DNA of 64,000 nucleotides from Candidatus Cloacimonadales bacterium. GTDB lineage: Bacteria; Cloacimonadota; Cloacimonadia; Cloacimonadales; JAIOQZ01. Shown here one piece after another: positions 2,080 to 59,074 of the stretch. Location: assembly GCA_963662655.2 (NCBI GenBank), contig CAXXTU010000002.1, forward strand, positions 1,504,001 through 1,568,000. Reading direction: 5' to 3'. The notes under the pieces were generated by a model that saw only the letters and a program-made list of their open reading frames with translations, did not search any database and had not been told where the DNA came from. The stretch's first letter is position 1, and every line of letters begins with the position of its first letter. The position numbers and the translations under genes are program-made.

Positions 2080-2246
2080 CAGATTCGTTCGACCGTGAGC
2101 GTAATCGTGGTGTTTCACACCCGATTTTCGGCTTTCGCGCAACGAAAACGATATCTTCGTACGAAAGTCTTTCGCGGTGCGGAACAACGAGAGTGGATAA
2201 TCGGGTGTGGTATATCCACGATGGAGCGAGGGATCGGGCGAAGATG
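2080..2246 (+). repeat. Dispersed structured intergenic element, copy A (167 bp)
   Basis: CAGATTCGTTCGA...GGTGTTTCAC...GTGGTATATCCACG...GATCGGGCGAAGATG; folds as a long hairpin; homologous to 25003-25116, 47749-47915 and 58938-59074. Confidence 0.9.
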
Positions 2247-2270
2247 CGACGACGGGCGTTGTAAAAAAAA

Positions 2271-3617
2271 GGCACTGTTGCATATTAAGTGGGTGAATGG
2301 GTATTCAGATATCCGCAACATTGCAGAACCTTCAATCTGAAGTATGAGAAGTCCTTGTATCCATACGCTCTCTTTATAATGGTTCGAATGACGTTGTTAA
2401 CCGCTTCTGCCTTGGCATTCGTGATTCTATGCTTGAACCAGTTCAACACAATATGCAATCTCTTCATAATCGTTCTTGCAAGTGCCTTCAGTGGCTCGAA
2501 GACGGTTTTCTGAATAACTCTGCACCACTCTTCAATCATCGGCTTCGCTTCTTCTTGCGTAATATCGTCTTCGAAAATCGATAGTAAATCTTCTTTGAGC
2601 AAATAGGCTTCGTAAAGGGGATGATTTAGCGTCTCCAGTTTCTTGAGTCGGGCTTGATGGTTTTCTTTGTGATTGTGTTTTCTGGTCAAAACCAACCACC
2701 GGTCGTGTTTCTTGCTCTGACGCAACTTGTCAGATTCAAAATCTCTCTGAAGTTCTCGTCGTACTTCTTCCACTTTCCTGTTGACCAGGCGGCTGAAATG
2801 GAAACGATCAAATACGATCATATCGGCACTCCAACACTCGGAAACAGCGCCGATATATGAACCACTGAAATCCATTGTTACGGTATCAATCCAGCGGAGT
2901 CGTCGTTCGTATTTTCGAAACAACTCCTTCGCACTTTCTTTCGATTTGCCCATTGTCAGGTCGATCACACGCCCGTCCTCATGGTTTGTGATAACCGTTG
3001 CATACTTATGCCTTCGCTTATAACCAATCTCGTCAATTGCAATCTGATCGACATTCGGAACTCGTCCTCTATAACCCTTTTCCAACTTGGATAACTCAAT
3101 TTTGTCGATTCGATAAATCGTACTCCGATCCACACCGAATATCCGTGCTACAGAAGCATTGTCTGAACGAAGCGTGAACTGGAGAACCTTATTGCCGAAG
3201 TCTTTAGAGTGTCGATTGAGACCCTCGGCAATATCCTGTTGTTCAGTTTTCACTCCACACTGAGCGCAGTTGATCCGGCGAAGCGTTAGCACAAGTACTA
3301 CGGGACGACAGGATATGGATGCATGAAGAATTTTGCGGACTCGATGATCATAAACTGTTCCCACAATACCGCATGTAGGACAACGTGGCTCATCTTCCTT
3401 TCGAACATGGACTTCAATGCATGGATAAGTTTGATACGTACCTTCGATTATCTGGTCGGCAGAATAACCTTGCAAAGCCAACAACGTTTTACAGACTTGT
3501 TTTCTGAGAGGATCATTCATCTCTATCTCCTTGTTGTGGTGATTAGGAGATTGTACGAGATCGGGTGATTCCTCTCAATCTTTTTTTCGACTTACCCACT
3601 AAGTTTGCAACAGTGCC
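2271..3617 (-). mobile_element. ISL3-family insertion sequence (1347 bp)
   Basis: Terminal inverted repeats GGCACTGTTGCATATTAAGTGGGT / GGCACTGTTGCAAACTTAGTGGGT (21/24 match); A8 on both flanks (2263-2270, 3618-3625) consistent with an 8-bp target duplication; single transposase. Confidence 0.93.
2285..3520 (-). CDS. ISL3 family transposase
   Basis: Zn finger CPTC...CAQC, IAIDE, VTMD, FDRFH, TNAKAEAVNNVIR..IKRAYGY. Confidence 0.95.
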   Translation of the reverse strand: MNDPLRKQVCKTLLALQGYSADQIIEGTYQTYPCIEVHVRKEDEPRCPTCGIVGTVYDHRVRKILHASISCRPVVLVLTLRRINCAQCGVKTEQQDIAEGLNRHSKDFGNKVLQFTLRSDNASVARIFGVDRSTIYRIDKIELSKLEKGYRGRVPNVDQIAIDEIGYKRRHKYATVITNHEDGRVIDLTMGKSKESAKELFRKYERRLRWIDTVTMDFSGSYIGAVSECWSADMIVFDRFHFSRLVNRKVEEVRRELQRDFESDKLRQSKKHDRWLVLTRKHNHKENHQARLKKLETLNHPLYEAYLLKEDLLSIFEDDITQEEAKPMIEEWCRVIQKTVFEPLKALARTIMKRLHIVLNWFKHRITNAKAEAVNNVIRTIIKRAYGYKDFSYFRLKVLQCCGYLNTHSPT

Positions 3618-3650
3618 AAAAAAAAACCGCCACCTCGTTCGAGATGGCGG
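3618..3650 (-). terminator. Rho-independent terminator of the minus-strand secreted-protein cluster
   Basis: Hairpin CCGCCATCTCGAACGAGGTGGCGG followed by T9 on the minus strand, about 25 nt after the stop at 3675. Confidence 0.8.
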
Positions 3651-3674
3651 CTACAATGTGCAGTGTAGTTTGAC

Positions 3675-5924
3675 CTATTTGATCAAAGCCATTTTATGAA
3701 CGGCTGTTCCCTTGGAGGATGTAAGTCTTGCGAAATACACGCCGCTGGAAACAGATTTTCCGTTATCGTCCATACCGTTCCATACAACCGCTTCGCTTTC
3801 AACAACATCGTTGTCGATCAGCGTTCGAATCACCTGACCCCTGATATTGTAGATCGCCAGCGTGACCGGTTCGTTGGAAGGAATGCTCATGGCGATGGTT
3901 GTTTCCGGGTTGAACGGATTCGGGTAAACGCTCAGAGAGACGCCCGTTACCTGCGGAGCGGATGGATCGCTCTCGTTATCGAGATATTCGTTACCCATTC
4001 CACCGTACGCGCCCATATCGGTTGTCAGCGTTCCCATAGCAGGCCACAGCGGTAATCCTGAGTTGTCCGGATCCTCGACATCCATGTGCTCGCCTTCAGG
4101 ATCACCGGCATCGATACAGGGTGAATCTTCCGAGAGGTACCACTCGACGTTGAACAAGTTCTCGATGAGACCAACCTCGGTTGAGGCATTGGTGAACATC
4201 GGATCTCCGTCGATGTTTCCGGTTCCGTCGTAACCACCGGAAACACAGTTGTACGTGGCATAGAAATCGCCGAAGAGATCGATCAGCGGTTCGTCTTCGC
4301 CAATGATGATGTTATTCACCAGGTCCATCTCGGATTCGTAGAGGAAGATCGCTGCACCGGTGCTTCCGGTACAAAGATTGTTCGCGATCGTGTTGTTGAC
4401 CACAACCGGATATGAATCTTCGCGAACGCTGATTGCGGCAGCCTGGCTACCCTGATTGTTCACAATAATGTTATTGTAAATCTCGGGAGTCGAATTCACG
4501 ATGCCGAATGCACCTGCGACCGAGCCGCCATCGTTGTTACCGATAAAACACTGTTTCACGGAAACATTGTCGGAATTGACGATGTGAATCGCGCCTGCCT
4601 GCGTTGAGCCGGAGTTGTCGACAAAGCGACACTTCTGGATATCCACGCTTGAGTTGCTGATCAAAATCGCGCTCTCCTCTGCATTGTAAAACTGGCAGTT
4701 GAAGACGATCGACTCGAATGCGTTGGAATCGATGAAGTCGAGACCATTCCATACGTTACGATCCGTTGTCGAGAAAACAATCGGGTCGTCGTCTGAAGCG
4801 TCGGCAACAAGCGTTCCTTTAACGATCATTCCAATGCCGTTCTGGCTCGTGATTGTCGTTCCCGGTTCAATGACCAGCGTCGCGCCGACAGGAACGGTTA
4901 CATCGCCAATCATGTGATAATTGCCGTATTGGGGATCCCAATGACCCGCGACCGAGCCATAGATATTCCCTGTATCCTGAACGTAGATGTAATCCTCGGC
5001 GGTCTTGGTGTCCGTTTCTTCACCGTCGGAAACGGTGAGACTTACCGTGTAGACGCCAGGAGTCGTATAAACCCATGCAGGATTCTCTTCTTCACTGTCA
5101 ATATTGCCATCACCATCGAAATCCCATTCCCAGGAGATGATTCCTCCCGGAGGCATGGAAAGGCTGGTGAACTGGACGTCAAGAGCAGGTGGACCCATCG
5201 TGATATTAGCGGAGAAATTCGCACCGAATTGCGCCATTTCGCTGATCGCAGCCTGATGGATAACCTTGTCGCCATTGAGGGTCTGAATCAGCACAACGCC
5301 GCGAAGATCGTCAACGCTGTCGTAGTCGAAACCACTGTCGAGGGTTGCGGTGAAAGTTCCGGAATCACCGGAAGCGGTAAGCCCGAAATCCTGTGCTTCG
5401 TAACGACGTACCACGCAGAAGTAGTCGTTCGTGTAACGTTGGGTCACGATGAAGATTATTTTGTTGTTGGAAGTTGTGATGTCCGCCGTCAAAGAGACAC
5501 TGGCTTGCAGCAGGAAGTTGAGATCCTCGTCCTGCATGAAAGCCATGGTGATCTCAGCCGGAGCATCGTCATCGATGACCTGATTGTAATCGGAAACGTA
5601 ACGGGGGTAAGTCGTTCCGCCGCCCCCATCTTCGATGTATCCACCGAATTGGGCATGCGGGATACCGCTTACTCCATACATGCTGCCACGCGAACTGTAG
5701 TTCGGGCTCGTGGGGCATGTCGTTTCGTTTGTTCCACCATTCCAGATCAAGGGAACCACGTTCTCGTGGTTCTCGAATAATTGAAGCAGCCCAGACCGAG
5801 CTGCGGGGCAGTAGCTGCACCATGTTTGCGTAAACACTTCGCCGACTACCTGTATCTGTGTAGCCAGAGCAAGCGTTGACGCAAGGAGCAGCATTAAGAA
5901 GACGACTAATCTTCTTGTCATCAA
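3675..5924 (-). CDS. Secreted Omp28/thioredoxin-like (WCSYC) + PKD + parallel beta-helix + FlgD/T9SS-type CTD protein
   Basis: Signal peptide, EVFTQTWCSYCP, PKD motif WEWDFDGDG..YTTPGVYTVSLTV, Asn-rich beta-helix, YPNPFNPETTI CTD; SD AAGGAGG (start TTG 5924 or ATG 5921). Confidence 0.85.
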   Translation of the reverse strand: MMTRRLVVFLMLLLASTLALATQIQVVGEVFTQTWCSYCPAARSGLLQLFENHENVVPLIWNGGTNETTCPTSPNYSSRGSMYGVSGIPHAQFGGYIEDGGGGTTYPRYVSDYNQVIDDDAPAEITMAFMQDEDLNFLLQASVSLTADITTSNNKIIFIVTQRYTNDYFCVVRRYEAQDFGLTASGDSGTFTATLDSGFDYDSVDDLRGVVLIQTLNGDKVIHQAAISEMAQFGANFSANITMGPPALDVQFTSLSMPPGGIISWEWDFDGDGNIDSEEENPAWVYTTPGVYTVSLTVSDGEETDTKTAEDYIYVQDTGNIYGSVAGHWDPQYGNYHMIGDVTVPVGATLVIEPGTTITSQNGIGMIVKGTLVADASDDDPIVFSTTDRNVWNGLDFIDSNAFESIVFNCQFYNAEESAILISNSSVDIQKCRFVDNSGSTQAGAIHIVNSDNVSVKQCFIGNNDGGSVAGAFGIVNSTPEIYNNIIVNNQGSQAAAISVREDSYPVVVNNTIANNLCTGSTGAAIFLYESEMDLVNNIIIGEDEPLIDLFGDFYATYNCVSGGYDGTGNIDGDPMFTNASTEVGLIENLFNVEWYLSEDSPCIDAGDPEGEHMDVEDPDNSGLPLWPAMGTLTTDMGAYGGMGNEYLDNESDPSAPQVTGVSLSVYPNPFNPETTIAMSIPSNEPVTLAIYNIRGQVIRTLIDNDVVESEAVVWNGMDDNGKSVSSGVYFARLTSSKGTAVHKMALIK
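5786..5804 (-). promoter_or_regulatory. SECIS-like hairpin within CDS, copy 1
   Basis: GCAGCUC-GGUCU-GGGCUGC starting 13 nt after the first Cys codon (TGC, 5819-5817) of CxxC. Confidence 0.5.
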
Positions 5925-6014
5925 GTTCCTCCTTACTATGCTGTTTCTTTTTCAAGAAATCATCTCTCTCTATCGTAACGAATAGCTTTTTAAGGATCTG
6001 TCGGAACTGCCGGA

Positions 6015-8258
6015 TTACTTGATAAGAGCCATCTTGGCAGTCACGGTACGGGTGTCCGTCGTCAGCCGCGCGAAGTAAACACCGCTCGAGACCGGTTTCC
6101 CCGCCTCGTCGATGCCCTTCCACACAAGGTTGAGCGATTCGGTTCTTTCGTTCTCCAGGAGCGTGCAAACCTTCTGGCCGCGAATATTGTAAATCGCCAG
6201 CGTCACCGGCTGCTTGCTCTCCTGCGCACTAAGCTTAAGCGCGATGGTCGTCTCCGGATTGAACGGGTTCGGGAACACGCTCAGGGAGATTATGTCCGCA
6301 GAAGGCGCGACCGTCTCGTCGTCCGTATCGATGTATGGAGCTCCATGACTTCCGCCATAAGCGCCCATATCATTGGTGAGAGAGCCCATTGCAGGCCAAA
6401 GTGCGTATCCAGTGTTGTCGGGATCTTCCACATCGTAGTAATCATCCCCTGGATTCCCAGTATCGATGCAGGGCGAGTCCTCTTGCAGGAACCAGCGTCC
6501 GCCGGTACCGTCGTAGTCCACGCCGCTACCGCTGCTGGGATTCGAGAAGAGCGGGTCCGCGTCGATGTTCATGGTTCCGTCGTGGCCTCCGGTGATGTTG
6601 CAGAAATCAACCGTGGGCGTGCTGTTGAGCGCGTAAATGATCGGCTCATCGCCGCGGAGAATACAGTTCATGATCTGCGGATTGGCGTTGAAAGCGAAAA
6701 GCGCGCCACCCGTTGCGCCGGTGATTGTGTTGTTCACCACCGTGTTATTGAAAAATTCCGGCACACTCTGGTTTTTGAACACCACTGCGCCTCCGGACAT
6801 CCCCGTGTTGTTCGCGAAGACATTGTTCGTGATCACCGGCGAGGATGATGAAAGCTGGATCGCACCTGAATTGCCGGTACTGGAGTTGTTGGCAAACAAA
6901 CTCCCGGTAATCGACACATCGGATGCGCTGATCAGATCGATCGCCGCCGGCGTGCTTGTGCTGTGGTTGTCATAGAACACGCAGCCGTCCACTTCGAGGC
7001 TCGAGTCATCGACGACGATCGCGGTATTGGTTGTTCCGGAGAACCGGCAATTGACCAGTTCGTTATCCCGATCGGTATAGCGAACCTTCATTCCTTTCCA
7101 GGTTCCGCCGTCTGCGGCACGGAATACAATCTGATCGCCGTTTCCGCCGTCTGCGACGAGCCGGCCGTTCACTTCAAAGGTCGCGTCGTTAGAAAGGACG
7201 ATCTCCACACCCGGATCGATTGTCAGTACCTGGCCGTCCTCGACGATCACATCGCCTACGATCTCGTAGGGGTTATATGTCGTGAGCCAGCTACCCGCAA
7301 CGGGGCCGGACGTGTTGCTGCCGTCAGTTACGGTAATCAGGCCCTGGGCGTTCGTCGTAGCGCTTTCGCCATTTGCGTGAATGGTGAGCGAGACGTCGTA
7401 GACACCCGGTGTGTCGTATATGTGGAACGTACTTTCGTCTTCGCTGTCGATGACTCCATCACCGTCGAAATCCCATTCCCAGGCAGTGATTTCACCCACG
7501 GGGAACGAAAGGCTCTGGAAGCTTACGGTAAGCTGCGCTGGGCCTTCGGTGATGCTCGCGTCGATAACGGCAAGCATACCGGTGAAAGGAGTCGAGACAG
7601 CCTGATAGACCTGGTGGTTTCCTGTGAAGCTCTGCACGATGACAATCGCGCGGACGCCCTGAAGGTCCCAGGATGCATCGAGTTCGACGGGGTGTTCAAA
7701 GTACCCGGTCTCACCCGTTTCGTTCAGGGTAAAGGTCTCATCCGCATAGTCTACGACAGTACAAAAATACTCGTCTGTAAAGGCGTTCGTAAGAATGTAG
7801 ATGATACGGTTGTTGGTCGTGGTGATGTCCCCGGTCATCTCGACATTCGCCATGATGGCGAGCTGCCCCAGGTCGTTGGTTCCCAGGTCGATGTCGATCG
7901 CGACGGGAGAGTTATCGTCCACGATGGAGTTGTAATGGCTCAAGTAACGGGGATAGGTTGTTCCGCCGCCAAGATCGTTAATGGCCCCCCCGAACTGCGC
8001 TGATGGCAGCGACGAGATTCCATACATCGATTTTCTTGAACCGTTGTTCGGGCTTGGATGTTGTCCATCTCCTTCCCAAATTAGTGGAACGACATGTTCG
8101 TTCTCTTCGAATAATTGAAGCAGCCCAGACCGAGCTGCGGGACAGTACGGGCACCATGTTTCCGTGAACACCTCCGCCAGTACCCCGATCTGTGTCGCTT
8201 GTAGCAGCAACGCCGAAAGAAGCATCAGCAGGAGGAGTAATAATCGATTGGATTTCAC
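6015..8258 (-). CDS. Secreted Omp28/thioredoxin-like (WCPYC) + PKD + parallel beta-helix + FlgD/T9SS-type CTD protein, tandem paralog of 3675-5924
   Basis: Same domain order and motifs; GTG start after AAGGAGG. Confidence 0.85.
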   Translation of the reverse strand: MKSNRLLLLLLMLLSALLLQATQIGVLAEVFTETWCPYCPAARSGLLQLFEENEHVVPLIWEGDGQHPSPNNGSRKSMYGISSLPSAQFGGAINDLGGGTTYPRYLSHYNSIVDDNSPVAIDIDLGTNDLGQLAIMANVEMTGDITTTNNRIIYILTNAFTDEYFCTVVDYADETFTLNETGETGYFEHPVELDASWDLQGVRAIVIVQSFTGNHQVYQAVSTPFTGMLAVIDASITEGPAQLTVSFQSLSFPVGEITAWEWDFDGDGVIDSEDESTFHIYDTPGVYDVSLTIHANGESATTNAQGLITVTDGSNTSGPVAGSWLTTYNPYEIVGDVIVEDGQVLTIDPGVEIVLSNDATFEVNGRLVADGGNGDQIVFRAADGGTWKGMKVRYTDRDNELVNCRFSGTTNTAIVVDDSSLEVDGCVFYDNHSTSTPAAIDLISASDVSITGSLFANNSSTGNSGAIQLSSSSPVITNNVFANNTGMSGGAVVFKNQSVPEFFNNTVVNNTITGATGGALFAFNANPQIMNCILRGDEPIIYALNSTPTVDFCNITGGHDGTMNIDADPLFSNPSSGSGVDYDGTGGRWFLQEDSPCIDTGNPGDDYYDVEDPDNTGYALWPAMGSLTNDMGAYGGSHGAPYIDTDDETVAPSADIISLSVFPNPFNPETTIALKLSAQESKQPVTLAIYNIRGQKVCTLLENERTESLNLVWKGIDEAGKPVSSGVYFARLTTDTRTVTAKMALIK
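8120..8138 (-). promoter_or_regulatory. SECIS-like hairpin within CDS, copy 2
   Basis: Identical 19-nt hairpin at the same offset from the Cys codon (8153-8151). Confidence 0.5.
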
Positions 8259-8310
8259 TCCAGCCTCCTTTTATTTTCGGGTTCTATCAATGATCTATTA
8301 TGGTATTCAG

Positions 8311-9693
8311 TTACTTCAATAGAAGCATCTTCTTCGCGGCAGAGCTCTGCTCGCCTTCCAGACGATAATAATATACACCGCTTGTTACCGGATTGCCATA
8401 ACTGTCCTTGCCATTCCAGGACACAGAGCCTTTACCCTGATTGACGCTCAGGTTGTCGAACGATTTTACCAACTGACCGCGAACGTTGTAAATGGACAGC
8501 TTTGTGTTGCGAACATTGTCCGTCGGGAGCGAGAAATGAATCTGCGTCTCCGGATTGAATGGATTCGGAGTGTTTTGCGCAAGCTGCACGCCGCTGTAAG
8601 GCACGGTATCGTCTCCGGCGGCGGAACCGGTCTCGTAGGTGAAGTTCAACACAATCGCCTCACTATGTGAAGGCTGAATGGTGAAATTGAAATCCGCCGT
8701 ACCGTTGGAGCTAACGTTCGGAATCAGGAAGTCGAACGCGATCTGCTCGCCCTCGCCAAGCGTGAATTCCCAGGCTCCGCCTGTGGAAGGATGACAACCG
8801 CCCTCTCCATCGGCATACGTATGACAGAACATGACCATCCAGCTATCGGGAACGGAGTTGTACTCGAGGGATGCTGAATAGGCATGCTCGGAGCCGTAGT
8901 TCTTCAGGTAGAATTTTTCGCTGGTGAACTCGTAGACCTCGCCGGTGTATCCGGGACCAACCACGTTGAAATCGAACGGAACGCCGACCCGGCAGGTTAC
9001 TTCGTCCATCGGGTAGGTCGAAGCAGACTGAATGATGGAATGATCCGAAGCCTGCACGTATACGACGACCTGAAGGTTCGTGCTCACCCATCCGCTATCG
9101 ATGGTAAAGCCGTCGATGAGCGTCTGCTGAGAGCCCTGACCAGTCATGCTGAAATCCTGTGTCAGCACCTGACGAGTTACGTGATCGATGCCGTCAATAC
9201 CGTCTTCAACAAGGATGAAGCGAACGTATCCATCCATGATCTCGAACTCGTCCGAGAGCATGGTCACGGTGGCAGCTACGTCGCCGCTCGATGCGTCAAA
9301 ACCGTCGATTTGCAGCTCGATGGGGGCTGTGTTGTATTTTCCAAGATCGATGACTCCCGCATAAGCTGAGCCGTTCGCAACATGATCACCGCCACCAAAA
9401 ATCGTGGTAGACCCGTCGAAGATCGCCATTGGGAAGTCGATCACCTGATAGAAATCGATCATGGCCTGGGTGTCGTCGTTCCCCATATCGCCATGATAAT
9501 GTTGAGCAAGCGAGAAATTTGCCGGAGAATATGACTCGTCAATTACTCCAATACCATCGTTCACGTCTTGCGTTTGAGTTGAAGATGCGTCGTTCAGGAC
9601 CTCGATCATCATGATCTGCGGCGTTCCGGTGAACTCGGCAAAAAGGCCGGTTGCAACCAGTAGCGCCAGCAACAATATATTCACACGTTTCAT
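8311..9693 (-). CDS. Secreted Omp28-like protein lacking CxxC, with FlgD/T9SS-type CTD
   Basis: Signal peptide, FYQVIDFPMAIFDG, LQVVVYVQ...IIQS, QNTPNPFNPETQI CTD; SD GGAGG before ATG 9693. Confidence 0.8.
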   Translation of the reverse strand: MKRVNILLLALLVATGLFAEFTGTPQIMMIEVLNDASSTQTQDVNDGIGVIDESYSPANFSLAQHYHGDMGNDDTQAMIDFYQVIDFPMAIFDGSTTIFGGGDHVANGSAYAGVIDLGKYNTAPIELQIDGFDASSGDVAATVTMLSDEFEIMDGYVRFILVEDGIDGIDHVTRQVLTQDFSMTGQGSQQTLIDGFTIDSGWVSTNLQVVVYVQASDHSIIQSASTYPMDEVTCRVGVPFDFNVVGPGYTGEVYEFTSEKFYLKNYGSEHAYSASLEYNSVPDSWMVMFCHTYADGEGGCHPSTGGAWEFTLGEGEQIAFDFLIPNVSSNGTADFNFTIQPSHSEAIVLNFTYETGSAAGDDTVPYSGVQLAQNTPNPFNPETQIHFSLPTDNVRNTKLSIYNVRGQLVKSFDNLSVNQGKGSVSWNGKDSYGNPVTSGVYYYRLEGEQSSAAKKMLLLK

Positions 9694-9755
9694 TTTGTCC
9701 TCCATGTATCTTGTAATTCAATTTATCTCATTTCAAGTCTTTTTATATATCCAAG

Positions 9756-11252: not shown

Positions 11253-11262
11253 CCCGTCCGTC

Positions 11263-11760
11263 CTATTCGGCTTCTACCGGTTTTTCGCTCAAGGCTTTCA
11301 CGATTTCTTCTTCCAGATGCATCTCATCGCCCTTCTGATATCCCACGTGAGAGAAAACCATCTCCCCGTCCTTGCTTATGATCATCGTGTGAGGAGGATT
11401 CTGTGCATTGAGCGCTTTGTAAACCTTCATGTCGGGATCGAGCAGCGTGAGGAACTGGAATCGGTTCTTCACGAAGCGGATCGCGTCTTCCTTCTTGGAT
11501 GGCTTGTCCACGGAGATGCAAACAACCGTAATCCGATCTTCGTATTTCTTCTGGAGCTTGTCCAACTCGGGCATTTCCTTCTTGCAGTTCTTGCACCATG
11601 TCGCCCAAAAACTGATAACAACCGGCCCCTTCTCCAGCAAACTGGAAAGCGACACCTGATCGCCGTTGATATCCTCGAGTTTGAAATCCTGCACTTTATC
11701 CGCCGCGAGGAGTCCCGCAGCCAAAACCGTCATGATAATCGTAAGAATGATTGTTCGCAT
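11263..11760 (-). CDS. TlpA family thiol:disulfide reductase
   Basis: Signal peptide, DFKLEDING, SFWATWCKNCKKEMPEL, PHTMIISKDG. Confidence 0.93.
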   Translation of the reverse strand: MRTIILTIIMTVLAAGLLAADKVQDFKLEDINGDQVSLSSLLEKGPVVISFWATWCKNCKKEMPELDKLQKKYEDRITVVCISVDKPSKKEDAIRFVKNRFQFLTLLDPDMKVYKALNAQNPPHTMIISKDGEMVFSHVGYQKGDEMHLEEEIVKALSEKPVEAE

Positions 11761-11774
11761 TGTATTGCTCCTTC

Positions 11775-13190: not shown

Positions 13191-13245
13191 ATTTCTCTCC
13201 ATCTCATAATTACTAAAAAAATCTATCCCTGCATGGCATCGAGGA

Positions 13246-15247: not shown

Positions 15248-15272
15248 GGCAAAAATCATTTTAGGAAGGATT

Positions 15273-24983: not shown

Positions 24984-25002
24984 CAAAGATGTTGCTCCGG
25001 GG

Positions 25003-25116
25003 CACCTTCGCCCGATCCGCATTTCCGACGGGATACACCACGGCTCCGAAAGGAAGGAGATATTGAAATGCTCCGCCGTGAAACACCCCGCCGGAAATGC
25101 GGATCGAACGAATCTG
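25003..25116 (-). repeat. Dispersed structured intergenic element, copy B (114 bp, inverted)
   Basis: Reverse complement reads CAGATTCGTTCGATCC-GCATTTCCGGCGG-GGTGTTTCACGGC...GCCGTGGTGTATCC-CGTCGGAAATGC-GGATCGGGCGAAGGTG. Confidence 0.85.
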
Positions 25117-25170
25117 CCTCCGGATCGAAAATTTTACAGATAATGAACGGATAAGAGACAAGGAGTTGAG

Positions 25171-47703: not shown

Positions 47704-47748
47704 GTGTTTCTCCTGTTCTTTGTCTGGTACCTCGGCGCAGATCGCGAG

Positions 47749-47915
47749 CAGATTCGTTCGATCTCAAGCGGAATCGTGGTGTTTCACACCAGATTTTCGA
47801 CTTTCGTGCAACGAAAACGAAATCTTCGAACGAAAGCCTTTCGCGGAGCGATACAACGAGAGTGGATAATCGGGTGTGGTATATCCACGATGGAGCGAGG
47901 GATCGGGCGAAGATG
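47749..47915 (+). repeat. Dispersed structured intergenic element, copy C (167 bp)
   Basis: Collinear with and highly similar to copy A. Confidence 0.9.
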
Positions 47916-47977
47916 CCGCGATGTGCTGCACGCAAAGTCCACTCATAATTTATGTTCGAATCGAGATTGATCTTCCA

Positions 47978-49201: not shown

Positions 49202-49202
49202 G

Positions 49203-52200
49203 TTATAATCCTGCCGTATCGGGATTGATCAACCTCTCAATCATCCTGCTGAGCTTCTGGATATTGTACGGCTTCATGATTACATCGTTGAAGCCTTCGC
49301 TCAACAGATCGTCGATGAGATTTATTTCCGTGTACCCCCGTGGTCGCTATCGCCTTGATGTCCGGATCGATCTTGCGGATATCCCTTAAGATTTCGATTC
49401 CCCCGTTTTCACCGGGGATCGTCAAGTCAAGCAGCACCACGTCGTAAGGTGTTTTGCTTTCAATAGCTTTGTTGAATAACCACAGCGCTCGGTCCTCTCC
49501 CTGCGCCGTGTCGATCTCATAACCGAGATGCTTGCTCAGCCTTTTCAACATCTGGCAAACCTCTTTCTGATCGTCCACGGCCAGTATGCGACCTGTTCCT
49601 TTTATAAATGCTGATGTCGATGAAGCATAAACTTCTTTCTGATCCGATGCTGGCAGATAGATATGAAACGTCGTATATTTCCCCACCTCCGATTGCACTT
49701 CGATTTTCCCGTTGTGCTTACGGATAATCGAATGGACTACCGCAAGCCCCAGGCCATGTCCGGTTTCCTTCGTGGAAAAATATGGGTCGAATATTCTATG
49801 AAGATTTTCCTGCGGAATTCCATGCCCGGTATCGGAAATGCTGATACGAACATATTCACACTGCTCGTCCGGAGCGAGATTTCCCTCCACTTCCCGGCGG
49901 CTCATCGTTCGATTCTCCGCCCAGATTCGGACAAGCCCCCCCTCGGGCATTGCAGCGCTTGCATTGATGACGATATTCTGCACGACCTGGCTCAATTGCC
50001 CCCTGTCTGCGATTACATTCTTCAAATCCTCGGGATGATCGAATTCGCAATCCGTCTTCGAACCCCTGAGCGCAAAGAAAGCCGAGTCCCGGATCACGTG
50101 ATCAAGATCCGTGTTTTCCAGAATAGGTGCGCCCCCCTTGGAGAAGGTCAGCAGTTGTTTCGTCAGCGATTGCGCCCTGCGGATCGCTTTAACAGTCTCA
50201 TCGAGGTTTTCGTAATCAATGGAGGTTTCGTGGAAGTTTGTCATCACCATCTCGATATTGCCCAGCATAATCAATAGCAGGTTGTTGAAGTCATGCGCGA
50301 TACCTCCCGCCAAAATGCCGAGTGAATCCAGCTTCTGCAAGCGAAGACGCTCCTCTTCATACTGGCTGCGCTCGGTGATGTCGAGAGCGACCTTCAAGAA
50401 AAGTTCTTCTCCATCAACATCGGTGAACTTGATGATGTTCGCCAAATAATGCCTGCCGTGAGGATCATTCCACTCGAAAGAGGTGCTGTCGATATTTTCG
50501 TACTTACTAAACAGCTTGCAGCTTTCACATGGAGTATCCCGATCTTGCACAATCTTATGACATAATCTGTTTTCGTATTCCCCATATCGCTCTATGAAAG
50601 CTTTATTCCCATATTTGATCTTGTAATCTCTTGCCTGTATATAGACTGGGGTAGGCAAGAGGTCGAGAATGGTGAAAAGCCTGCTCTTTTCCTGTTTCAG
50701 CTTGGATAGCGCGCTTTCGCGTTCGGTTATATCGTTCATGATTGCTATGATGCTCATAGGCTTACCGTCTTTATCTTTCGCCAGAGAACATAAAAACGCG
50801 AGAGATTTATCGATTCCCTGCGCATTAACAAACGATATTTCTCCATCCCAAAATCCATTACGTAAAACATAATCCAGAATGGTACCTGTTTGGGCCTTAT
50901 CGGGAAACAAATCACGCACATTCTTCCCAACTATCTGCATGGGGTTATCATAGCCGAAGACCTTCACCGTAGCCTTGTTCACATAGGTTACTTTGCCCGA
51001 AGCATCCGCAATACCTATGCCGTTGACGGACGATTCGATTGCGATATCCTTGACTTTCATCATGTCTTCGGACATTTTTTTCATTGTGATATCCTCGACA
51101 ATCCCAAGGATATACTTCGGTTCGTCATTGTCATCGAATATCGGAACTCTCTTCACATTCAGCCAGATGTTGCGAATCCCCGAGTCAATGTGTTCTTCAT
51201 AGAATGTTACATCCTCTCGATTCCTTATCGTTTCCGCGTCCTTCATGTGGTAATATTCCGCGACATCCGGTTTATCCACGATTTCATCATCGGTCTTCCC
51301 GAGCGTTGCAGAGCGTGGAATCCCCGTCATAACTTCAAACTGACGGTTCCAGACGATGAAACGAAAATCGTCTTTGGCATCCTTCACGAAGACGCCGAGG
51401 GGCAGCTCATGAATGATCTGTTCGCTGAATCGTTTCTGATCGTCCAATTGTTTCAGGGCGTTGACGCGTTGCGTAATGTCCATCATCGAGACTATGCGCT
51501 CCATCGTCTCGCTATCCACGCTAATTTTCATGTGGATATGCAGCTCTTCACCCCGGCGGTTGTAGATTCTGAATTCATACTCGGAGGGCGGATTCCCTTT
51601 CATCTCGGAACGAAGCTTATGATAATAAGACATCCGTTCGTAGTCCTCGGGAACGATGAAATCGCTGAGCTGTTTATGCCCTTCAATCTCATCTCGATTA
51701 AAACCTATCAGTTCGCAAAATTTCTTGTTGCAGCGGGTAATAACCCCATCATCGCCGAATATGCACGTTGCCGCACCGGTATTCTCGAATACCAGGCGGT
51801 ACTTCATCTCTTCTTTCTCGATGAGCTGCGCGATCTCCTTGCTGTCCATCAACGGGATGAAGAAGAAGTCGCAATTCTCGCTTTCATCGCTTTGCGTTTT
51901 CACGCCAACGATGCGCATGGGGACTTGGTCATGCTCCGAAAAACTGATGATCTGCTCTTCAGCGTATTTCATGCCCCCAGAAATTTTCCGATACACCTTT
52001 TCGATTCCAGCGCAAGTTTTTGGGCTGAGCCACTTTCTCAGATCATCCTCACTTGGATTGGCGTCATCGATTTTCGCGTAATCTCTGGCAGATTGGTTAT
52101 ACTTGACAATTCGAAGCGAACTGTCGATAATTATATGGGGCACATTGAACAAGCTGCAAAGCAACTCGACGGTGTTATAATTTTCATCCGGCAAATCTGA

Positions 52201-52212
52201 AAACTGTTTCAT
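49203..52212 (-). pseudogene. Multi-PAS hybrid histidine kinase with +1 frameshift in the receiver domain
   Basis: PAS repeats, GGIAHDFNN, N/G boxes, receiver; the ORF as given stops at 49237, but removing one G of the G5 run restores TTGYTE...KPY ending at 49203. May be a sequencing error. Confidence 0.75.
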
Positions 52213-52390
52213 CTTATTCCCTTGGTTTCAGAATGATAATTCATTACACAACAGTACCCTGTTTTGATCAAGTAAAAATATTTTTATAGCCCAATAATCT
52301 TTAAAATTATTCAGCTTCCCCGAATAATCTTCTTGCCTGATCGCACCCAACCCGGTTATAAATGCACTGTGCTTCAAGGAGGATAGAACG

Positions 52391-55327
52391 ATGAAAAAGA
52401 AGAGTCTTTTTGTTTTATTATTGCTTGCCGTAACAATGCTTATCGCGTCCGGAGACTTGCCAGACTTCAAGAAAATCATAGAAAATCGACGCCTTCGGGA
52501 GCTGGATGTCTGGAGCACGCAGGATGTTCCATCCAGACAAAACCGCCCCGAGCACAATTTTGACGCGCTCCACTACGATATCGACATCACACTGCTGTTT
52601 GAAACCCTGTCGTTCCAGGTGGATTTAACCGCGGATTTCGAGATACTGGAGGACAACGTGGAAAGCATCACGCTCCATTGCGACGATGCCATACAGATTT
52701 CCGGTATCCAGCAGAGCGATCAGGACGTGGCGTGGAGCCACGAAGATGGTGCGCTACAGGTGAACCTCCTCGAACCGGCTCAAACCGGTGAGATCGTCAC
52801 ACTTCGTTTCGATTACTCGGCCCAGGAATCCACGCGCCTGGAAGACGGACTGAAATACGAGACGCACTCGGGAGTGCCTGTCGCCTTCACCATGTGCTCC
52901 CCCCGAGGAGCCCGGAAATGGCTCATCAGCTACGACCTCCCCGATGACAAGATCGAAGACGTCGATCTGTGGATTACCTACCCCGAAGAATACTCATCCG
53001 CGGCGATCGGCCTGCTTCAAGAAACGATAGACAACGGCGACGGAACCGTTACCGACCACTGGTACGAGGCTTACCCCGTGTGTTCCTACCTGATTTCTCT
53101 CGCCGTAACCAACTACGAGCTCCATACATTCGATTTCACATGGGAAGGGCAAACCATGCCCGTGATGAACTACGTCTATCCCGAAAGCGCGGATAGCCAG
53201 CTCCAGCTCTTCAACCAGTGTGGCGACATGCTCACGTTCTTCTCCAGCATTTACGGCGTTTATCCATTCCTGGATGAGAAATACGGTCACGCGGTATGCA
53301 CGAACCTGGGGGCAACCGCGATGGAGCACCAAACCTGCACGTCCTACAATCCATCTTACATCAACGAAGAGGACGCACCCTACACCGTCGCGCACGAGCT
53401 CTCGCACCACTGGGGCGGAGACTGCCTTTCCATCAGCGATTGGAGCCATGTGTGGCTCAAGGAAGGATTCGCGTCATACTCGGAAGCGCTCTGGGCAGAA
53501 AGCCTGTACGGATCCGAGGGACTCATCGAATACATGGAAGCCTTCGACACGGGAAGTCAGCTTGATCCCAGCCTCTACCGCGATCCCGAAGGAACCGCCA
53601 ACGAGATTTTCAACTGGACGATCTACGCCAAAGGCGCCTGGGCCATGCACATGCTGCGCGGGGTAATCCGCGACGAAGACTTCTTCCAGACGATCGCCGG
53701 CATTCTCGAGGATCCCGACTTTCGCTACGGGAATTTCTCCACCGACGACCTGATGAACTACGCGGAGGATGTCTCGGGGATCGAGCTCGACTGGTTCTTC
53801 GACTGCTGGTACCCCAACGAAGGCAGGCCACGCTACGACTACACCGTATTCGCGCCGGAGATGTACTTCCCCGAGATGCACTGGTACTCCATCGCCATTC
53901 AATCGCAGGGAACCGCCGGCGACGAGTTCACGATGCGAATCCCGATTCGGCAAGGCGCTTTCGACAGCTCCATCCTGGTTGAACCTGGAGCGAATTATAT
54001 TCATACGGGGCTTCAAGTCAGCGGTTGGAATGTTGAGTTCGATCCCGACAGTTGGGTGCTGGACGGCGGCTTCACCGAGCGCCTTCCCATCCTGAACGAA
54101 ATCCCGAGACGCGACGGGAAAGTGATGCTGGTGTGGGATTACTTCTTCGACGACATGGTCGAAGGCTACTGGATTTTTCGCAGCAACGGAGGTGAATTTT
54201 CCAGGCTGAACGAAGAACCGCTCGAAGCGATATCATTCCTCGACGAGGATATCTCCCCCGATTCGCTTTACGCTTATAAAATCTGCGCGGTTCTCAGCGG
54301 AAGCTACTCCGATTTCTCCAACACCATTGTAACGCAGCCGATCGATTATTCGTTCAATAGAGGGATTTTGGTGGTAGATAACACCATGGACTATAGCAGT
54401 CCCACGCTCCCCACGGATGAAGAGATGGATGAGTTTTACGATGATTTGATGAGATATTACGCCTACGACACATGGGATGTCAGCGATCAGGGCTATCCCC
54501 CGCTTTCGGAGATGGGGCGCTACTCGACGATCATCTGGCATGCGGACGATATCCAGCAGTCACCAATCGTCGATGACATCTACCGGCTTCAGAACTACTC
54601 TCTCGCCGGCGGGAAACTGATTATCTCCCAATGCAAGAAGACATCCGCCATGCAGCCCTCCGAGCTGGAAAGTTTTTTCGGGATCGATGCCGTTTATTTC
54701 AACAATCAGCCCGACTTCGTCGCAGCGATCTCGCAGGACGAGGAATACGTCATGGACATCCCCGTCGATACGGATCGACTTCCCCTCCCCAATTGGACGA
54801 ATGCCCTGGGGTACGTCTCGCGCTTCGACGTCGATGAATCCACCGAGGTTATCTTCCGGTACGACTCCATCAACGACGATCCCGCCTGGGAGGGGCAGCC
54901 TTGCGGAATATGGTTGCACGATCCCGAGATCGTCCTGCTCGGGTTTCCGCTTTATCACATGATGGAATTCGAAGCGGAGCATTTCATGCAACACGTCCTG
55001 CACGAATTCGGCGAACTCGAACCGGCGGTGGATGACCAAACCGCACCGGCTTGCGAGATGGAGGTCAAGCTCTACCCCAATCCGTTCAACCCGGAGCTGA
55101 ACATCAGCTTCATGCTCGATCGCGAGGGGGAAACAAGCGTGAGTATTTACAACGTCCGCGGCGAATTAGTTCGTAAATTTGAACCTGAAAGGTTGACAGC
55201 CGGAAGACACACGTATAATTGGGGTGGGAGAAATTCTGCAGGAAACCTCGTTTCCTCCGGAGTTTATTTTGTCAGAGTACACCATGACGGTGTCGAGAGA
55301 ATTTCGAAAGCGTTATTGATCAAGTAA
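52391..55327 (+). CDS. Secreted M1 family aminopeptidase with FlgD/T9SS-type CTD
   Basis: AMEHQT, AHELSHHW..WLKEGFASY, YAKGAW..HMLR, YPNPFNP CTD. Confidence 0.92.
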   Translation: MKKKSLFVLLLLAVTMLIASGDLPDFKKIIENRRLRELDVWSTQDVPSRQNRPEHNFDALHYDIDITLLFETLSFQVDLTADFEILEDNVESITLHCDDAIQISGIQQSDQDVAWSHEDGALQVNLLEPAQTGEIVTLRFDYSAQESTRLEDGLKYETHSGVPVAFTMCSPRGARKWLISYDLPDDKIEDVDLWITYPEEYSSAAIGLLQETIDNGDGTVTDHWYEAYPVCSYLISLAVTNYELHTFDFTWEGQTMPVMNYVYPESADSQLQLFNQCGDMLTFFSSIYGVYPFLDEKYGHAVCTNLGATAMEHQTCTSYNPSYINEEDAPYTVAHELSHHWGGDCLSISDWSHVWLKEGFASYSEALWAESLYGSEGLIEYMEAFDTGSQLDPSLYRDPEGTANEIFNWTIYAKGAWAMHMLRGVIRDEDFFQTIAGILEDPDFRYGNFSTDDLMNYAEDVSGIELDWFFDCWYPNEGRPRYDYTVFAPEMYFPEMHWYSIAIQSQGTAGDEFTMRIPIRQGAFDSSILVEPGANYIHTGLQVSGWNVEFDPDSWVLDGGFTERLPILNEIPRRDGKVMLVWDYFFDDMVEGYWIFRSNGGEFSRLNEEPLEAISFLDEDISPDSLYAYKICAVLSGSYSDFSNTIVTQPIDYSFNRGILVVDNTMDYSSPTLPTDEEMDEFYDDLMRYYAYDTWDVSDQGYPPLSEMGRYSTIIWHADDIQQSPIVDDIYRLQNYSLAGGKLIISQCKKTSAMQPSELESFFGIDAVYFNNQPDFVAAISQDEEYVMDIPVDTDRLPLPNWTNALGYVSRFDVDESTEVIFRYDSINDDPAWEGQPCGIWLHDPEIVLLGFPLYHMMEFEAEHFMQHVLHEFGELEPAVDDQTAPACEMEVKLYPNPFNPELNISFMLDREGETSVSIYNVRGELVRKFEPERLTAGRHTYNWGGRNSAGNLVSSGVYFVRVHHDGVERISKALLIK
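55193..55219 (+). promoter_or_regulatory. Candidate internal sigma70 promoter for glgP-galE
   Basis: TTGACA-15 nt-TATAAT inside the end of the peptidase gene; the spacer is short. Confidence 0.35.
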
Positions 55328-55354
55328 ATAGAACCACACAGGAGATATTGGGCT

Positions 55355-57904
55355 ATGGATAGATTCAAGGAGATAACCATGGATCGAGATAAACTAAGGC
55401 TATCACACCTGGTAAAGAATTACGGCGACCTGATGGACGCGGAGTCGCTGGTTCGAGACTTTGCCGACCGGCTGCGATACAGTCTTTGCGCAGATCGTTA
55501 CTCGGCTTCGGCCTACGACTGTTTCACCAGCTTCGCGCTTGCGGTTCGCGATTGCCTCACCGCTCGCTGGATCCGTACGCAGCAGGAGTATTACAACAAG
55601 GACGCCAAGCGCGTTTACTACCTCTCGATGGAATTTCTCACAGGCAGAGCACTCGGTAACGCGGTGACCAACCTCGGTATCTGGAACGAGAGCATCGAAG
55701 CGCTGCACAAGCTTGGCCTGGATTTGGAAGAGCTCCGGGAACTCGAGTGGGACGCCGGGCTTGGAAATGGCGGCCTGGGAAGGCTCGCAGCCTGCTTCCT
55801 CGATTCGATGGCGACACTCCAGCTCCCGGGATACGGATACGGCATTCGCTACGAGTATGGTATCTTCTCGCAAAGGCTTTGGGACGGTTATCAGATCGAA
55901 ACCCCCGACAACTGGCTCCGATATGCGAATCCATGGGAAGTGGAGCGTCCCGAATTCATCTACCCGGTGAAATTCTACGGTCGTCTGAACCAATACCTCG
56001 ACCCGCACGGCAAGTGGAAAGTGGATTGGGTCGACACCCAGGACGTCATGGCCATGGCCTACGACACGCCGATTCCGGGGTACCGCAACAACACAGTGAA
56101 CACCCTGCGCCTGTGGTCATCCAAATCCACCCGCGACTTCAACCTGCAATACTTCAACAGCGGGGACTACATCCGCGCGGTGGAGGAGAAGAACCACTCC
56201 GAAACCATCACGAAAGTACTTTACCCCAACGACAACAACATGCAGGGCAAAGAGCTTCGCCTCAAGCAGGAGTACCTCTTCGTTTCGGCGACACTCCAGG
56301 ATATCCTGCGCCGCTTCGACAAGATACGCAACGACCTTCGCCTCCTTCCCGAGAAAGTCGCCATCCAACTCAACGATACGCATCCTGCGCTGGCGATACC
56401 GGAACTCATGCGTCTCCTCGTCGACGAGCGCGGTGTTCCATGGGACACCGCCTGGGACATCACGAAAAACACCTTTGCATACACGAACCACACCGTACTG
56501 CCGGAAGCGCTCGAACAATGGAGAGTCGACCTGATCGAACGCGTCCTTCCGCGCCACTTGCAGATCATATACGAAATCAATCGCAGATTCATGGACCAGG
56601 TATGGTCAACCTACCCCGGTGACATGATTCGCATGCGCAATATGTCCATCATCGGCGAAGAGCCGGTCAAAACCATCCAGATGGCCAAACTCGCCATCGT
56701 CGGTTCACACTCGGTGAATGGCGTTTCCGCGCTTCACACGGAAATCTTGAAGGAAGATATCTTCAAGACATTCTACAATATGATGCCCGAGAAATTCAAC
56801 AACAAGACCAACGGCATCACCCAGAGACGCTGGCTGAAGCTCTCCAATCCGCGCCTCTCGGAGCTCATCGATTCGGCAATCGGAAACAAATGGACGACAG
56901 ACCTTTACGAACTCAAGAAGCTCGAACCGCTTGCCGACGACGACGTGTTCCGCGATCGCTGGCAGCAGGTGAAGCAGGAGAACAAGATCGAGTTTGCCAA
57001 GTGGGTGGAAGAGACCCACTACACGCGCGTCGATCCCGATTCGATCTTCGATTTCCAGGTCAAGCGCATCCACGAATACAAGCGTCAGCTCCTCAACGTG
57101 CTGCACGTGATCGATCAGTACAACCAGATCCGCATGAATCCGAAGCAGGATTTCGTTCCGCGAACCGTTTTCATCGGCGGAAAAGCTGCGCCGGGCTACC
57201 ACATGGCCAAGCTGGTCATCAAGCTGATCACCTCCGTCGCACACATCGTGAACAACGACCCTCGCGTAAAGGGCAAGCTCCGGCTGGTATTCCTGGTCAA
57301 TTACAACGTTTCCATGGCACAGAGGATTTTCCCGGCGTCCGACCTCTCCGAGCAGATTTCGACCGCCGGTCGTGAAGCCTCCGGAACGGGCAACATGAAG
57401 TTCGCGCTCAACGGAGCGATCACCATCGGTACGCTGGACGGAGCGAATGTTGAAATTCTCGAAGAAGTTGGAGATGATAACATCTTCATCTTCGGATTGA
57501 ACGCCGAAGAAGTGGAAAATACAAAGCGCACAGGATACAATCCGAAGACCTATTACGAGACGAATCTTCGTCTGAAACGCGTCATCGACATGATCCACGA
57601 CGGATATTTCTCACCGGAGAAACCGGACCTGTTCCATCCCATCGTGCACACACTACTCGACAGAGACGAGTACCTCTTGCTCGTCGACTTCGAATCGTAC
57701 ATCAAAACCCAGCGCCTGGTCGACGAGGCCTTCCTGGACAAGGAGCGCTGGCTGAGGATGTCGATTGCCAACGTGGCGAACAGCGGCAAATTCTCCTCGG
57801 ACAGGACCATCCAGGAATACGCGAAAGAGATTTGGGGCGCGACACCCGTCAGCGTTCCCCTGACAGACATCGACAGCATCGAGGAAATCGGAGTAGAAGA
57901 ATGA
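55355..57904 (+). CDS. glgP: Glycogen/starch phosphorylase
   Basis: GLGNGGLGRLAACF, QLNDTHP, KRIHEYKRQ, EASGTGNMK; alternative start 55379. Confidence 0.97.
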   Translation: MDRFKEITMDRDKLRLSHLVKNYGDLMDAESLVRDFADRLRYSLCADRYSASAYDCFTSFALAVRDCLTARWIRTQQEYYNKDAKRVYYLSMEFLTGRALGNAVTNLGIWNESIEALHKLGLDLEELRELEWDAGLGNGGLGRLAACFLDSMATLQLPGYGYGIRYEYGIFSQRLWDGYQIETPDNWLRYANPWEVERPEFIYPVKFYGRLNQYLDPHGKWKVDWVDTQDVMAMAYDTPIPGYRNNTVNTLRLWSSKSTRDFNLQYFNSGDYIRAVEEKNHSETITKVLYPNDNNMQGKELRLKQEYLFVSATLQDILRRFDKIRNDLRLLPEKVAIQLNDTHPALAIPELMRLLVDERGVPWDTAWDITKNTFAYTNHTVLPEALEQWRVDLIERVLPRHLQIIYEINRRFMDQVWSTYPGDMIRMRNMSIIGEEPVKTIQMAKLAIVGSHSVNGVSALHTEILKEDIFKTFYNMMPEKFNNKTNGITQRRWLKLSNPRLSELIDSAIGNKWTTDLYELKKLEPLADDDVFRDRWQQVKQENKIEFAKWVEETHYTRVDPDSIFDFQVKRIHEYKRQLLNVLHVIDQYNQIRMNPKQDFVPRTVFIGGKAAPGYHMAKLVIKLITSVAHIVNNDPRVKGKLRLVFLVNYNVSMAQRIFPASDLSEQISTAGREASGTGNMKFALNGAITIGTLDGANVEILEEVGDDNIFIFGLNAEEVENTKRTGYNPKTYYETNLRLKRVIDMIHDGYFSPEKPDLFHPIVHTLLDRDEYLLLVDFESYIKTQRLVDEAFLDKERWLRMSIANVANSGKFSSDRTIQEYAKEIWGATPVSVPLTDIDSIEEIGVEE

Positions 57905-58911
57905 GAATACTGGTTACAGGTGGCGCAGGCTACATTGGAAGCCACGCCTGTGTCTCATTGCTTGAAACAGGCAATGAAGTCATCGTAGTCGACAACCTTT
58001 CAAATAGCAAAATGGAATCGATCAGCCGTGTCGAGCAGATCACCGGCAAGAACATTCAGTTTCACAAGACCGACCTTCTGGACGCCTCCGGGCTGGACGG
58101 TTTGTTCGAGCGGACGAAGCCGGATGCGGTCATTCACTTCGCGGGTTACAAGGCAGTCGGAGAATCCGTGGCCAAACCCATGATGTATTACCACAACAAC
58201 ATCACCGGAACCATCAATCTGCTGGAGAGCATGAAGAAGCATGGCGTGGATACGCTCATCTTCAGCTCATCCGCCACGGTCTATGGCGATGCGGATCGCG
58301 TCCCGATAACGGAAGACTTCCCCCTGAAGCCGTACAGTCCGTACGGCTGGACCAAGTTCATGATCGAGCAGATGCTCCGTGATCTTCATGCAGCCAATCC
58401 GAACATGAGCATCGTTCTGCTCCGCTACTTCAATCCGGTGGGAGCGCATCCCTCCGGAAATATCGGCGAGGACCCAAACGGCATCCCCAACAACCTGTTC
58501 CCCTACATCTCGCAAGTGCTCATTGGGAAACGCAAAAAACTGCATGTGTTCGGCAACGACTACCCCACTCCCGACGGCACCGGTGTGCGCGACTACATTC
58601 ACGTCATGGACCTCGTTGATGGCCATGTGGTCGCACTGGAGAAATTGCACGGCAAACAGGGGGTTTTCACTTACAATCTCGGGACGGGAATCGGATACAG
58701 CGTTCTGGACATCGTCAAGGCGTACGAAAAGGCTTCCGGGAAAGAGGTCCCCTACAGTTTCACCGAACGACGCAGTGGCGATGTGGCGATTTGCTACTCC
58801 GACCCTTCCAAAGCGAAGGCTGAGCTGAGTTGGGAAACAAGGCGAAGTCTGGAAGACATGTGCGCAGACTCCTGGAAATGGCAGACCCAGAACCCGAAAG
58901 GATATGAATAG
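57901..58911 (+). CDS. galE: UDP-glucose 4-epimerase
   Basis: TGGAGYIGSH, FSSSATVYG, PYGWTK, LRYFNPVGAH. Confidence 0.96.
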   Translation: MRILVTGGAGYIGSHACVSLLETGNEVIVVDNLSNSKMESISRVEQITGKNIQFHKTDLLDASGLDGLFERTKPDAVIHFAGYKAVGESVAKPMMYYHNNITGTINLLESMKKHGVDTLIFSSSATVYGDADRVPITEDFPLKPYSPYGWTKFMIEQMLRDLHAANPNMSIVLLRYFNPVGAHPSGNIGEDPNGIPNNLFPYISQVLIGKRKKLHVFGNDYPTPDGTGVRDYIHVMDLVDGHVVALEKLHGKQGVFTYNLGTGIGYSVLDIVKAYEKASGKEVPYSFTERRSGDVAICYSDPSKAKAELSWETRRSLEDMCADSWKWQTQNPKGYE

Positions 58912-58937
58912 ATTTCTTTGAAAAAGTAGTTCGTGAA

Positions 58938-59074
58938 CAGATTCGTTCGATCTGCCGCGCAGGCGTGGTGTTACACTTCATGAAGCGCAACATGAAAAGC
59001 ATGTTAGCTGCTGATTAGTATTGCGCTGAATGAAGTGTTATATCCACGGCGGAGCGGGAGATCGGGCGAAGATG
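58938..59074 (+). repeat. Dispersed structured intergenic element, copy D (137 bp)
   Basis: Same terminal boxes; inner stem replaced by ACACTTCAT/ATGAAGTGT and GCGCAA/TTGCGC. Confidence 0.87.

Follow-up and report, generated by a model that had tools for sequence, protein, structure and literature searches.

The window analysed here is a 64,000-nt stretch of a Candidatus Cloacimonadales genome (GCA_963662655.2, contig CAXXTU010000002.1, positions 1,504,001 to 1,568,000) that contains four intergenic copies of a long, imperfect hairpin. The genome (3.81 Mb, 99% complete) is designated G000, the other three genomes of the genus G115, G116 and G117, and two genomes of the sister genus G118 and G119; C1 and C2 denote contigs and L-numbers (e.g. 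L082) denote loci taken from the relatives. An initial annotation of the window had described the four copies with their start and end motifs, and all were recovered where it had placed them, on the same strands and with both motifs, copies B and C being antisense to their flanking genes as it had noted. It had regarded them as a family of four, which proved far too few, as G000 contains about 143. The copies, and the conserved parts of copy C, are as follows.

2072..2253, plus strand: copy A, long-apex class, a 167-nt core (2080-2246; G000 C2:1506080-1506246) plus outer stem
24996..25124, minus strand: copy B, short class, a 114-nt core (25003-25116) plus outer stem
47741..47922, plus strand: copy C, long-apex class, a 167-nt core (47749-47915) plus outer stem
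47749..47763, plus strand: conserved left basal-stem arm of copy C, bearing purine-purine mismatches and two T of T-G pairs
47776..47787, plus strand: left inner box of copy C with its 4-nt T-rich loop strand
47876..47888, plus strand: right inner box of copy C with its 5-nt loop strand, which pairs with its left counterpart around the internal loop
47901..47915, plus strand: conserved right basal-stem arm of copy C
58930..59081, plus strand: copy D, intermediate apex, a 137-nt core (58938-59074) plus outer stem

The hairpin is built in layers. Outermost is an outer stem of 6 bp, which is variable, and next comes a bulged A. The basal stem that follows is conserved, whereas the mid stem (9-13 bp) is variable. 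Further in, two conserved boxes pair with each other, leaving a T-rich 4x5 internal loop, and lead to a variable inner stem and an apex whose length ranges from none to >300 nt. Within the basal stem, two purine-purine mismatches lie side by side, as do two T-G pairs. For the G000 statistics, two-ended copies of more than 55 nt were used, 129 in all; in these, the mismatches are G-A or G-G in 122 and A-G or G-G in 121, each T-G pair is present in 112 and the bulged base is A in 112. The outer stem covaries, its positions pairing in 105-123 of the 129 copies. Beyond the outer stem is a 3' tail, unpaired and 15-35 nt long, which is easier to discern in the relatives than in G000, where it is degenerate. 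The motifs that the initial annotation took for the ends are present, but the hairpin extends ~8 nt further on each side, through the bulged base and the outer stem; likewise, GGTGTT begins at position 30 in all four window copies, but genome-wide this is only the most frequent position (80/129), with the motif one base earlier in 22. One 379-nt copy, at C2:1736706-1737084, has an apex with three tandem repeats of a ~60-nt unit.

The variable stems differ in sequence and still pair. In an alignment of 34 modal-length copies (30 from G000 and 4 from relatives, with long copies left out), 91% of cells are paired and 40 of the 45 pairs show changes on both sides. The written strand is the one that folds. 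Mismatches in the variable stems favour it over the complement (GT 116 vs AC 29, AG 195 vs CT 26, GG 50 vs CC 14), as counted in 121 copies, a few of which were parsed imperfectly. It is also the better folder of the two strands, in 121/129 copies as DNA and in 127/129 as RNA, in line with the expectation that one strand would be superior. Compared with shuffled sequences, copy A has a folding z of -4.1 as DNA and -5.6 as RNA, with 0/200 shuffles as good.

The G000 copies were collected with nhmmer using profiles of the two ends, which returned 144 rows including one duplicate. Of these rows, 131 have both ends, 7 have just the left end and 6 just the right. A simple gene caller placed none of them inside a gene; a gene 3' end is found within 150 nt of 111/129 copies, and convergent gene pairs, which make up 295 of the 2821 gene pairs, host 55/129. 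The chromosomal distribution of copies is patchy and their number varies widely. When 150 candidates per genome were scored with a covariance model, the other three members of the genus gave at least 65, 40 and 34 matches, some of them antisense doubles, and the two genomes of the sister genus gave none. The covariance model matched 3/151 genomes of the phylum, all within the genus, an exact 17-mer matched 4/232, and all six pattern matches in a genome collection were titled Candidatus Cloacimonadales. Among the genomes searched, the family is thus restricted to one genus. A 16-mer matched viral contigs 65 times, with model scores of at most 18 bits, and a longer pattern had no match there; metagenomes gave no matches at first and then 15 pattern matches, none with a model match at the pattern; and plasmid and phage collections yielded no true copy. 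The initial annotation had not recognised a described family, and Rfam produced no match in the window, and 20 copies returned only generic miRNA-hairpin matches far below the cut-off. No description of the family was found in the lineage or general literature at the level of titles and listings, subscription papers being mostly beyond reach. The family is real and apparently undescribed, its general kind, dispersed lineage-specific hairpin repeats, being known. Its unusual traits are replichore polarity, nested exchange of two-arm modules and the absence of an identifiable mobiliser. G000 C2 also contains eight close, tail-to-tail doublets, always 3' end to 3' end (e.g. 13792/13953, 2254775/2254958 and 3341179/3341339); the doublets at 2349470 and 2468391 have the same flanks and different interiors.

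Orientation does not track transcription, as first proposed, but it is not random and instead goes with the replichore. The written strand lies on the C-rich strand in 97/129 copies (p 8e-9), a preference present between convergent (40/55), divergent (9/9) and co-directional genes (48/65). Judged by local skew, 53/58 copies in the relatives have the same polarity, a count in which copies are not independent since G115 and G116 have sites in common. A dif-like site at C2 ~796.6 kb adjoins the skew maximum at 808.8 kb and so marks the terminus, which makes the folding strand the leading-strand template. Between co-directional genes, sense copies number 21/65, and a mild additional antisense preference is detected at these sites (34/41 vs 14/24, p 0.04). 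The initial annotation had left open whether the element is a noncoding RNA or a folded single-stranded DNA (ssDNA) substrate; because orientation tracks replication in every gene context and sense copies are few, the DNA branch is favoured.

Sites of the hairpin are gained and lost. Comparison of orthologous loci, which the initial annotation had recommended, shows that syntenic gaps are often empty in relatives, and the converse also occurs. The gap orthologous to that of copy B is 99 nt long in G117 and has no copy, while the genes flanking copy D have G117 orthologues that overlap by ~3 nt, again with no copy. In the case of copy C, the G117 orthologue of its neighbour is joined by a copy to a gene that in G000 lies directly beside another copy. 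One site occupied in G115 lacks the hairpin in G116 and has a different palindrome there. A few sites are common to species that are ~75% identical; one example follows the C2:832146 orthologue in all four genomes. There is no excess of target-site duplications (TSDs), the mean shared word being 4.60 compared with 4.61 after shuffling, and the empty sites are too diverged from G000 to display an insertion footprint. Copies lie at synteny breaks in 8/10 cases compared with 87/230 gaps for G117, and in 10/14 compared with 39/101 for G115, counts that cover ~20% of G117 and ~10% of G115. When gene orientation and gap size are matched, starting from G000, the odds ratios are 3.2 against G117 (p 0.01) and 1.8 against G115 (p 0.38). 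The link between the hairpin and rearrangement breakpoints is accordingly suggestive only, being weaker after matching and not significant against G115. Low-depth contigs from two runs of one sample contained no joint that skips a whole copy, and the joints seen match other copies, which is evidence neither way.

Copies of the hairpin are mosaics. In 108 parsed copies, the four variable modules show almost no linkage (Spearman -0.04 to 0.14): 23/48 pairs with a near-identical mid stem have unrelated apices, and 25/60 pairs with similar apices have unlike mid stems. Pairing is nevertheless maintained within modules, as inner stems pairing at <60% occur in 0/108 copies and outer stems in 6/108. 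At sites occupied in both G115 and G116, which are 87% identical, the interior has been replaced on both arms in 3/8 cases with the outer stem and flanks kept. The two inner boxes appear in swapped order in 8/32, 4/24 and 4/19 copies of the relatives and in 3/109 of G000, and some copies have one inner box only. Inversion of the spacer was rejected as the origin of the swapped class, since the loops are permuted and not complemented. In two copies (C2:2292360 and C2:2599703), the left basal arm has been overwritten by the complement of the right arm, the outcome expected of template switching as outlined in PMC5941160. The stem covariation is therefore partly mechanical: arm-to-arm copying yields paired changes without selection, so that the covariation, which the initial annotation had noted and which is found in 40 of the 45 pairs, need not all reflect selection. 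Survival of the mismatches is a stronger sign of selection, because they escape correction by arm copying; the bulged A, the two T-G pairs and the T-rich internal loop resist correction as well.

These observations are best accounted for, with moderate confidence, by a non-autonomous folded-ssDNA repeat that is spread by a putative trans-acting protein, reshuffled at paired conserved blocks and harmonised by arm copying. The working form would be one folded single DNA strand. The protein would recognise the basal stem through its fixed irregularities together with the symmetric internal loop, and by analogy with known systems it may be a Y1/HUH-type strand-transferase or a tyrosine recombinase; according to the accounts in PMC8266576, PMC3116915 and PMC5371416, the enzymes of REPINs and attC sites read bulges and mismatches on one strand. 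Its activity would give rise to further copies close to gene 3' ends, and no target duplication would result. The copies would then exchange nested modules (outer, mid and inner stem, and apex) by recombination at conserved paired blocks, probably in the folded state, and arm-to-arm copying would keep the variable stems paired. The polarity could arise from polar insertion or from excision of copies on the often single-stranded lagging-strand template, as argued for attC; in sedentary integrons, as described in PMC5371416, attC bottom strands are mostly on the leading-strand template, which limits excision.

Several points weigh against this explanation. Ordinary gene conversion and template switching can create mosaics without a dedicated protein. 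Module similarity was calculated from short segments, and noise lowers the correlations between modules; mid stems pair at <60% in 19/108 copies; and 5/8 sites common to G115 and G116 are nearly unchanged. The slid control for the covariation count, with 34-48% of cells paired, is a lenient one, as the structure was drawn from the same alignment as was counted. Only 4/108 copies have a neighbour at >=95% identity, which indicates no recent burst of identical copies, and the family may be inactive. Finally, no cognate enzyme was found in G000 among the families searched, in a proteome that is only partly annotated, and no partner was apparent between close copy pairs, where the genes are ordinary, or among 153 flanking and 136 basic proteins inspected by eye.

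G000 has no Y1/RAYT gene or remnant, DUF559 gene, IS110 element or serine recombinase; within the genus IS110 was found only in G116 and a serine recombinase only in G117. TnpB was absent from all 8 genomes searched, GxxExxY from the 4 genomes of the genus and IS1595-type transposases, the type of ISStso1, from 5 genomes. No integron integrase exceeded the TIGR02249 cut-off in any of the 8 family genomes (best 79 vs 265 bits), nor did any control genome pass it. A Y2 transposase was found in 0/4 genomes, with the control genome also silent, and scans of called genes with HUH and reverse transcriptase motifs returned nothing useful. By eye, the tyrosine recombinases of G000 resemble XerC, XerD and prophage-type proteins. 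No hairpin copy occurs in 27 scanned nuclease and recombinase loci (DUF559, GIY-YIG, tyrosine recombinase) or near the four-helix-bundle genes found in 3/5 genomes, and searches of the relatives revealed no link between the hairpin and a RAYT, an integron integrase, TnpB or IS110. A promoter scan around copy C returned 0 sites and was uninformative. XerD was considered as a partner, as a copy abuts xerD in G000, and was rejected on finding that the G115 orthologue has no adjacent copy. Copy A is followed, ~24 nt past its core, by an insertion sequence (IS) of the ISL3 family (window 2270-3617, 411-aa transposase) that has 13 near-identical copies in G000, one of them partial; its ends are unrelated to the hairpin and 3/13 copies lie within 80 nt of one, so ISL3 was rejected as the mobiliser. 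Other repeats of G000 include a CRISPR-like repeat (~16 copies), a palindromic repeat (~30 copies), a GC-rich repeat, an IS3-like element in 8 copies and several Mu-like prophage segments, the last two named by eye. The long copy enclosing a transposase or recombinase that the initial annotation envisaged was not found. In G117 at C1 ~444.7-446.3 kb (L118:4700-6300), two near-identical direct hairpins flank an open frame of 317 aa with 37% GC and no Pfam match; this frame and its flanking hairpins look like a captured cassette.

A tentative alternative, somewhat unlikely at present, is a novel form of ssDNA recombination in which an enzyme outside the families searched, or a repurposed host recombinase, swaps strands across the folded duplex at the internal loop and basal stem. 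Such a reaction would swap apical modules, permute the inner boxes, seed copies and join distant loci, so that the hairpin would be a counterpart of attC that is dispersed, operates without an integrase and rearranges the chromosome, not cassettes. In the description given by PMC5371416, attC likewise folds on one strand, into a hairpin made imperfect by unpaired bases and by a central spacer that is also unpaired; its terminal structure varies, and the folding strand is mostly on the leading-strand template. Unlike attC, the hairpin occurs on both replichores and outside cassette arrays, with the cassette-like locus of G117 as the one exception; it is often antisense to or between housekeeping genes, its sequence is far more conserved, and none of the 8 family genomes has an integron integrase.

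An atypical REPIN or terminal inverted repeat, spread by a RAYT-type Y1 transposase that has since been lost from G000 and residing within REP mosaics in the relatives, is unlikely. As far as PMC3116915, PMC8266576 and PMC3733652 describe them, REPIN/REP-RAYT systems share with the hairpin a hundred or more extragenic long hairpins with conserved feet and compensatory spacer changes, as well as strand-specific irregularities, an unpaired tail and mosaic arrays; the hairpin foot reads GCAG or GTAG, and some REP-like families have no linked transposase (PMC3733652). The relatives G115-G117 carry Y1 genes. The small ones of L082, L083 and L087 are flanked by a repeat, and in these genomes this repeat often precedes the hairpin in a constant orientation; TAGCCC lies within 110 nt upstream of the hairpin in 10/32, 11/24 and 3/19 copies of the relatives, compared with 1/109 in G000. 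Yet 15 of 17 Y1 loci examined in five relatives bear other repeats, and a true hairpin copy was present at 0/15 (best 25 bits vs 85-148 for full-length members). G000, the genome richest in copies, lacks a Y1 gene or remnant and is nearly devoid of the Y1-flanking REP, with 14 genome-wide candidates, none within 800 nt of a hairpin copy. Moreover, the arms do not represent a single self-palindromic REP in two inverted copies. Only a minority of feet read GTAG (T in 9/129), whereas TnpA-Ec, by the account in PMC8266576, tolerates no change of GTAG, and the strong replichore polarity and nested module exchange also distinguish the hairpin from REPINs. The initial description of a one-strand, structure-constrained design like those of attC and REPIN that is neither attC nor REP is thus upheld: the hairpin would function like both and belongs to neither. 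Intergenic regions of G115-G117 (e.g. L149, L150, L240 and L241) contain same-orientation trains in which the Y1-flanking REP comes first, the hairpin second and further repeats, either palindromic or short and tandem, last; these neighbouring repeats are labelled 'DUF559-type' and 'GxxExxY-type'. A small Y1 gene lies between dinB and xerC in G115 and G117, other repeats occupy this place in G116, and in G000 (C2:3329170) dinB and xerC are apart and a hairpin copy follows dinB.

Multiplication by gene conversion of a domesticated, replication-polarised host site, such as a priming or restart hairpin or a protein-loading site kept by benefit to the host, is doubtful. The common polarity in four species, the restriction to one genus with no linked mobile gene and the retention of a few sites across species ~75% identical all agree with it; many sites are empty or rearranged in relatives, copy number is widely variable with a patchy distribution and none in the sister genus, and gene conversion alone makes no new sites.

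It is improbable that the family represents a multicopy structured RNA or an mRNA 3'-end element acting as a stabiliser or RNase substrate. G-U pairs and tandem G-A mismatches suit RNA, the written strand is the better RNA folder almost throughout and most copies are close to a gene 3' end. However, sense copies are the minority between co-directional genes, the strand follows replication even between convergent genes, Rfam offers no match and no reverse transcriptase is common to the genus: the sole reverse transcriptase-like frame of G000 (C2:981409-981954) has an internal TGA, and G117 has none.

A replication strand bias is also known for bcr1 of the Bacillus cereus group. In PMC3184786 and PMC6199540, so far as these accounts go, bcr1 is likewise a lineage-restricted repeat of ~150 bp that shows compensatory changes, occupies non-conserved positions and has no mobiliser that is known; it is set apart, by description only, by 5-bp flanking direct repeats and a cruciform fold, compared with the absence of a TSD excess and one long stem with an internal loop in the hairpin. 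BOX of Streptococcus and ERIC of enterobacteria, as outlined in PMC3184786, likewise have paired ends, a variable and sometimes tandem-repeated middle and positions near gene 3' ends; the hairpin differs from them in having no TSD or TA flank and no IS1595-type transposase in 5 genomes. These three families are looser analogues than REPIN and attC. An ordinary miniature inverted-repeat transposable element of a DDE or IS110 transposase, to which the size and gene-end position shared with ERIC, BOX and bcr1 (as summarised in PMC3184786) might point, is very improbable given the lack of TSD excess, the deliberately imperfect ends, the unrelated ISL3 ends in G000, the absence of IS1595 and the occurrence of IS110 only in G116, where 8 of 17 loci examined hold no copy. 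G116 (L321-L328) has 17 IS110-family copies, and those examined are not inserted in the hairpin.

Several dispersed bacterial hairpin repeats (bcr1, ERIC and CGTC-tagged REPs) have no proven mobiliser, and the family described here makes that question testable. Its folded strand, fixed irregularities and polarity are already defined, and because it is limited to one genus with four good genomes and has an element-free sister genus, the postulated enzyme could be sought by gene subtraction. If new, that enzyme would be a new tool for structured ssDNA, and it might be what drives synteny in the genus to be so poor. If no enzyme exists, gene conversion and template switching give RNA-like covariation in DNA, which matters for the discovery of noncoding RNAs by covariation. 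With one-way orientation relative to replication, swapped interiors and no mobilising gene among those searched, the hairpin family points to an unrecognised way of spreading folded ssDNA.

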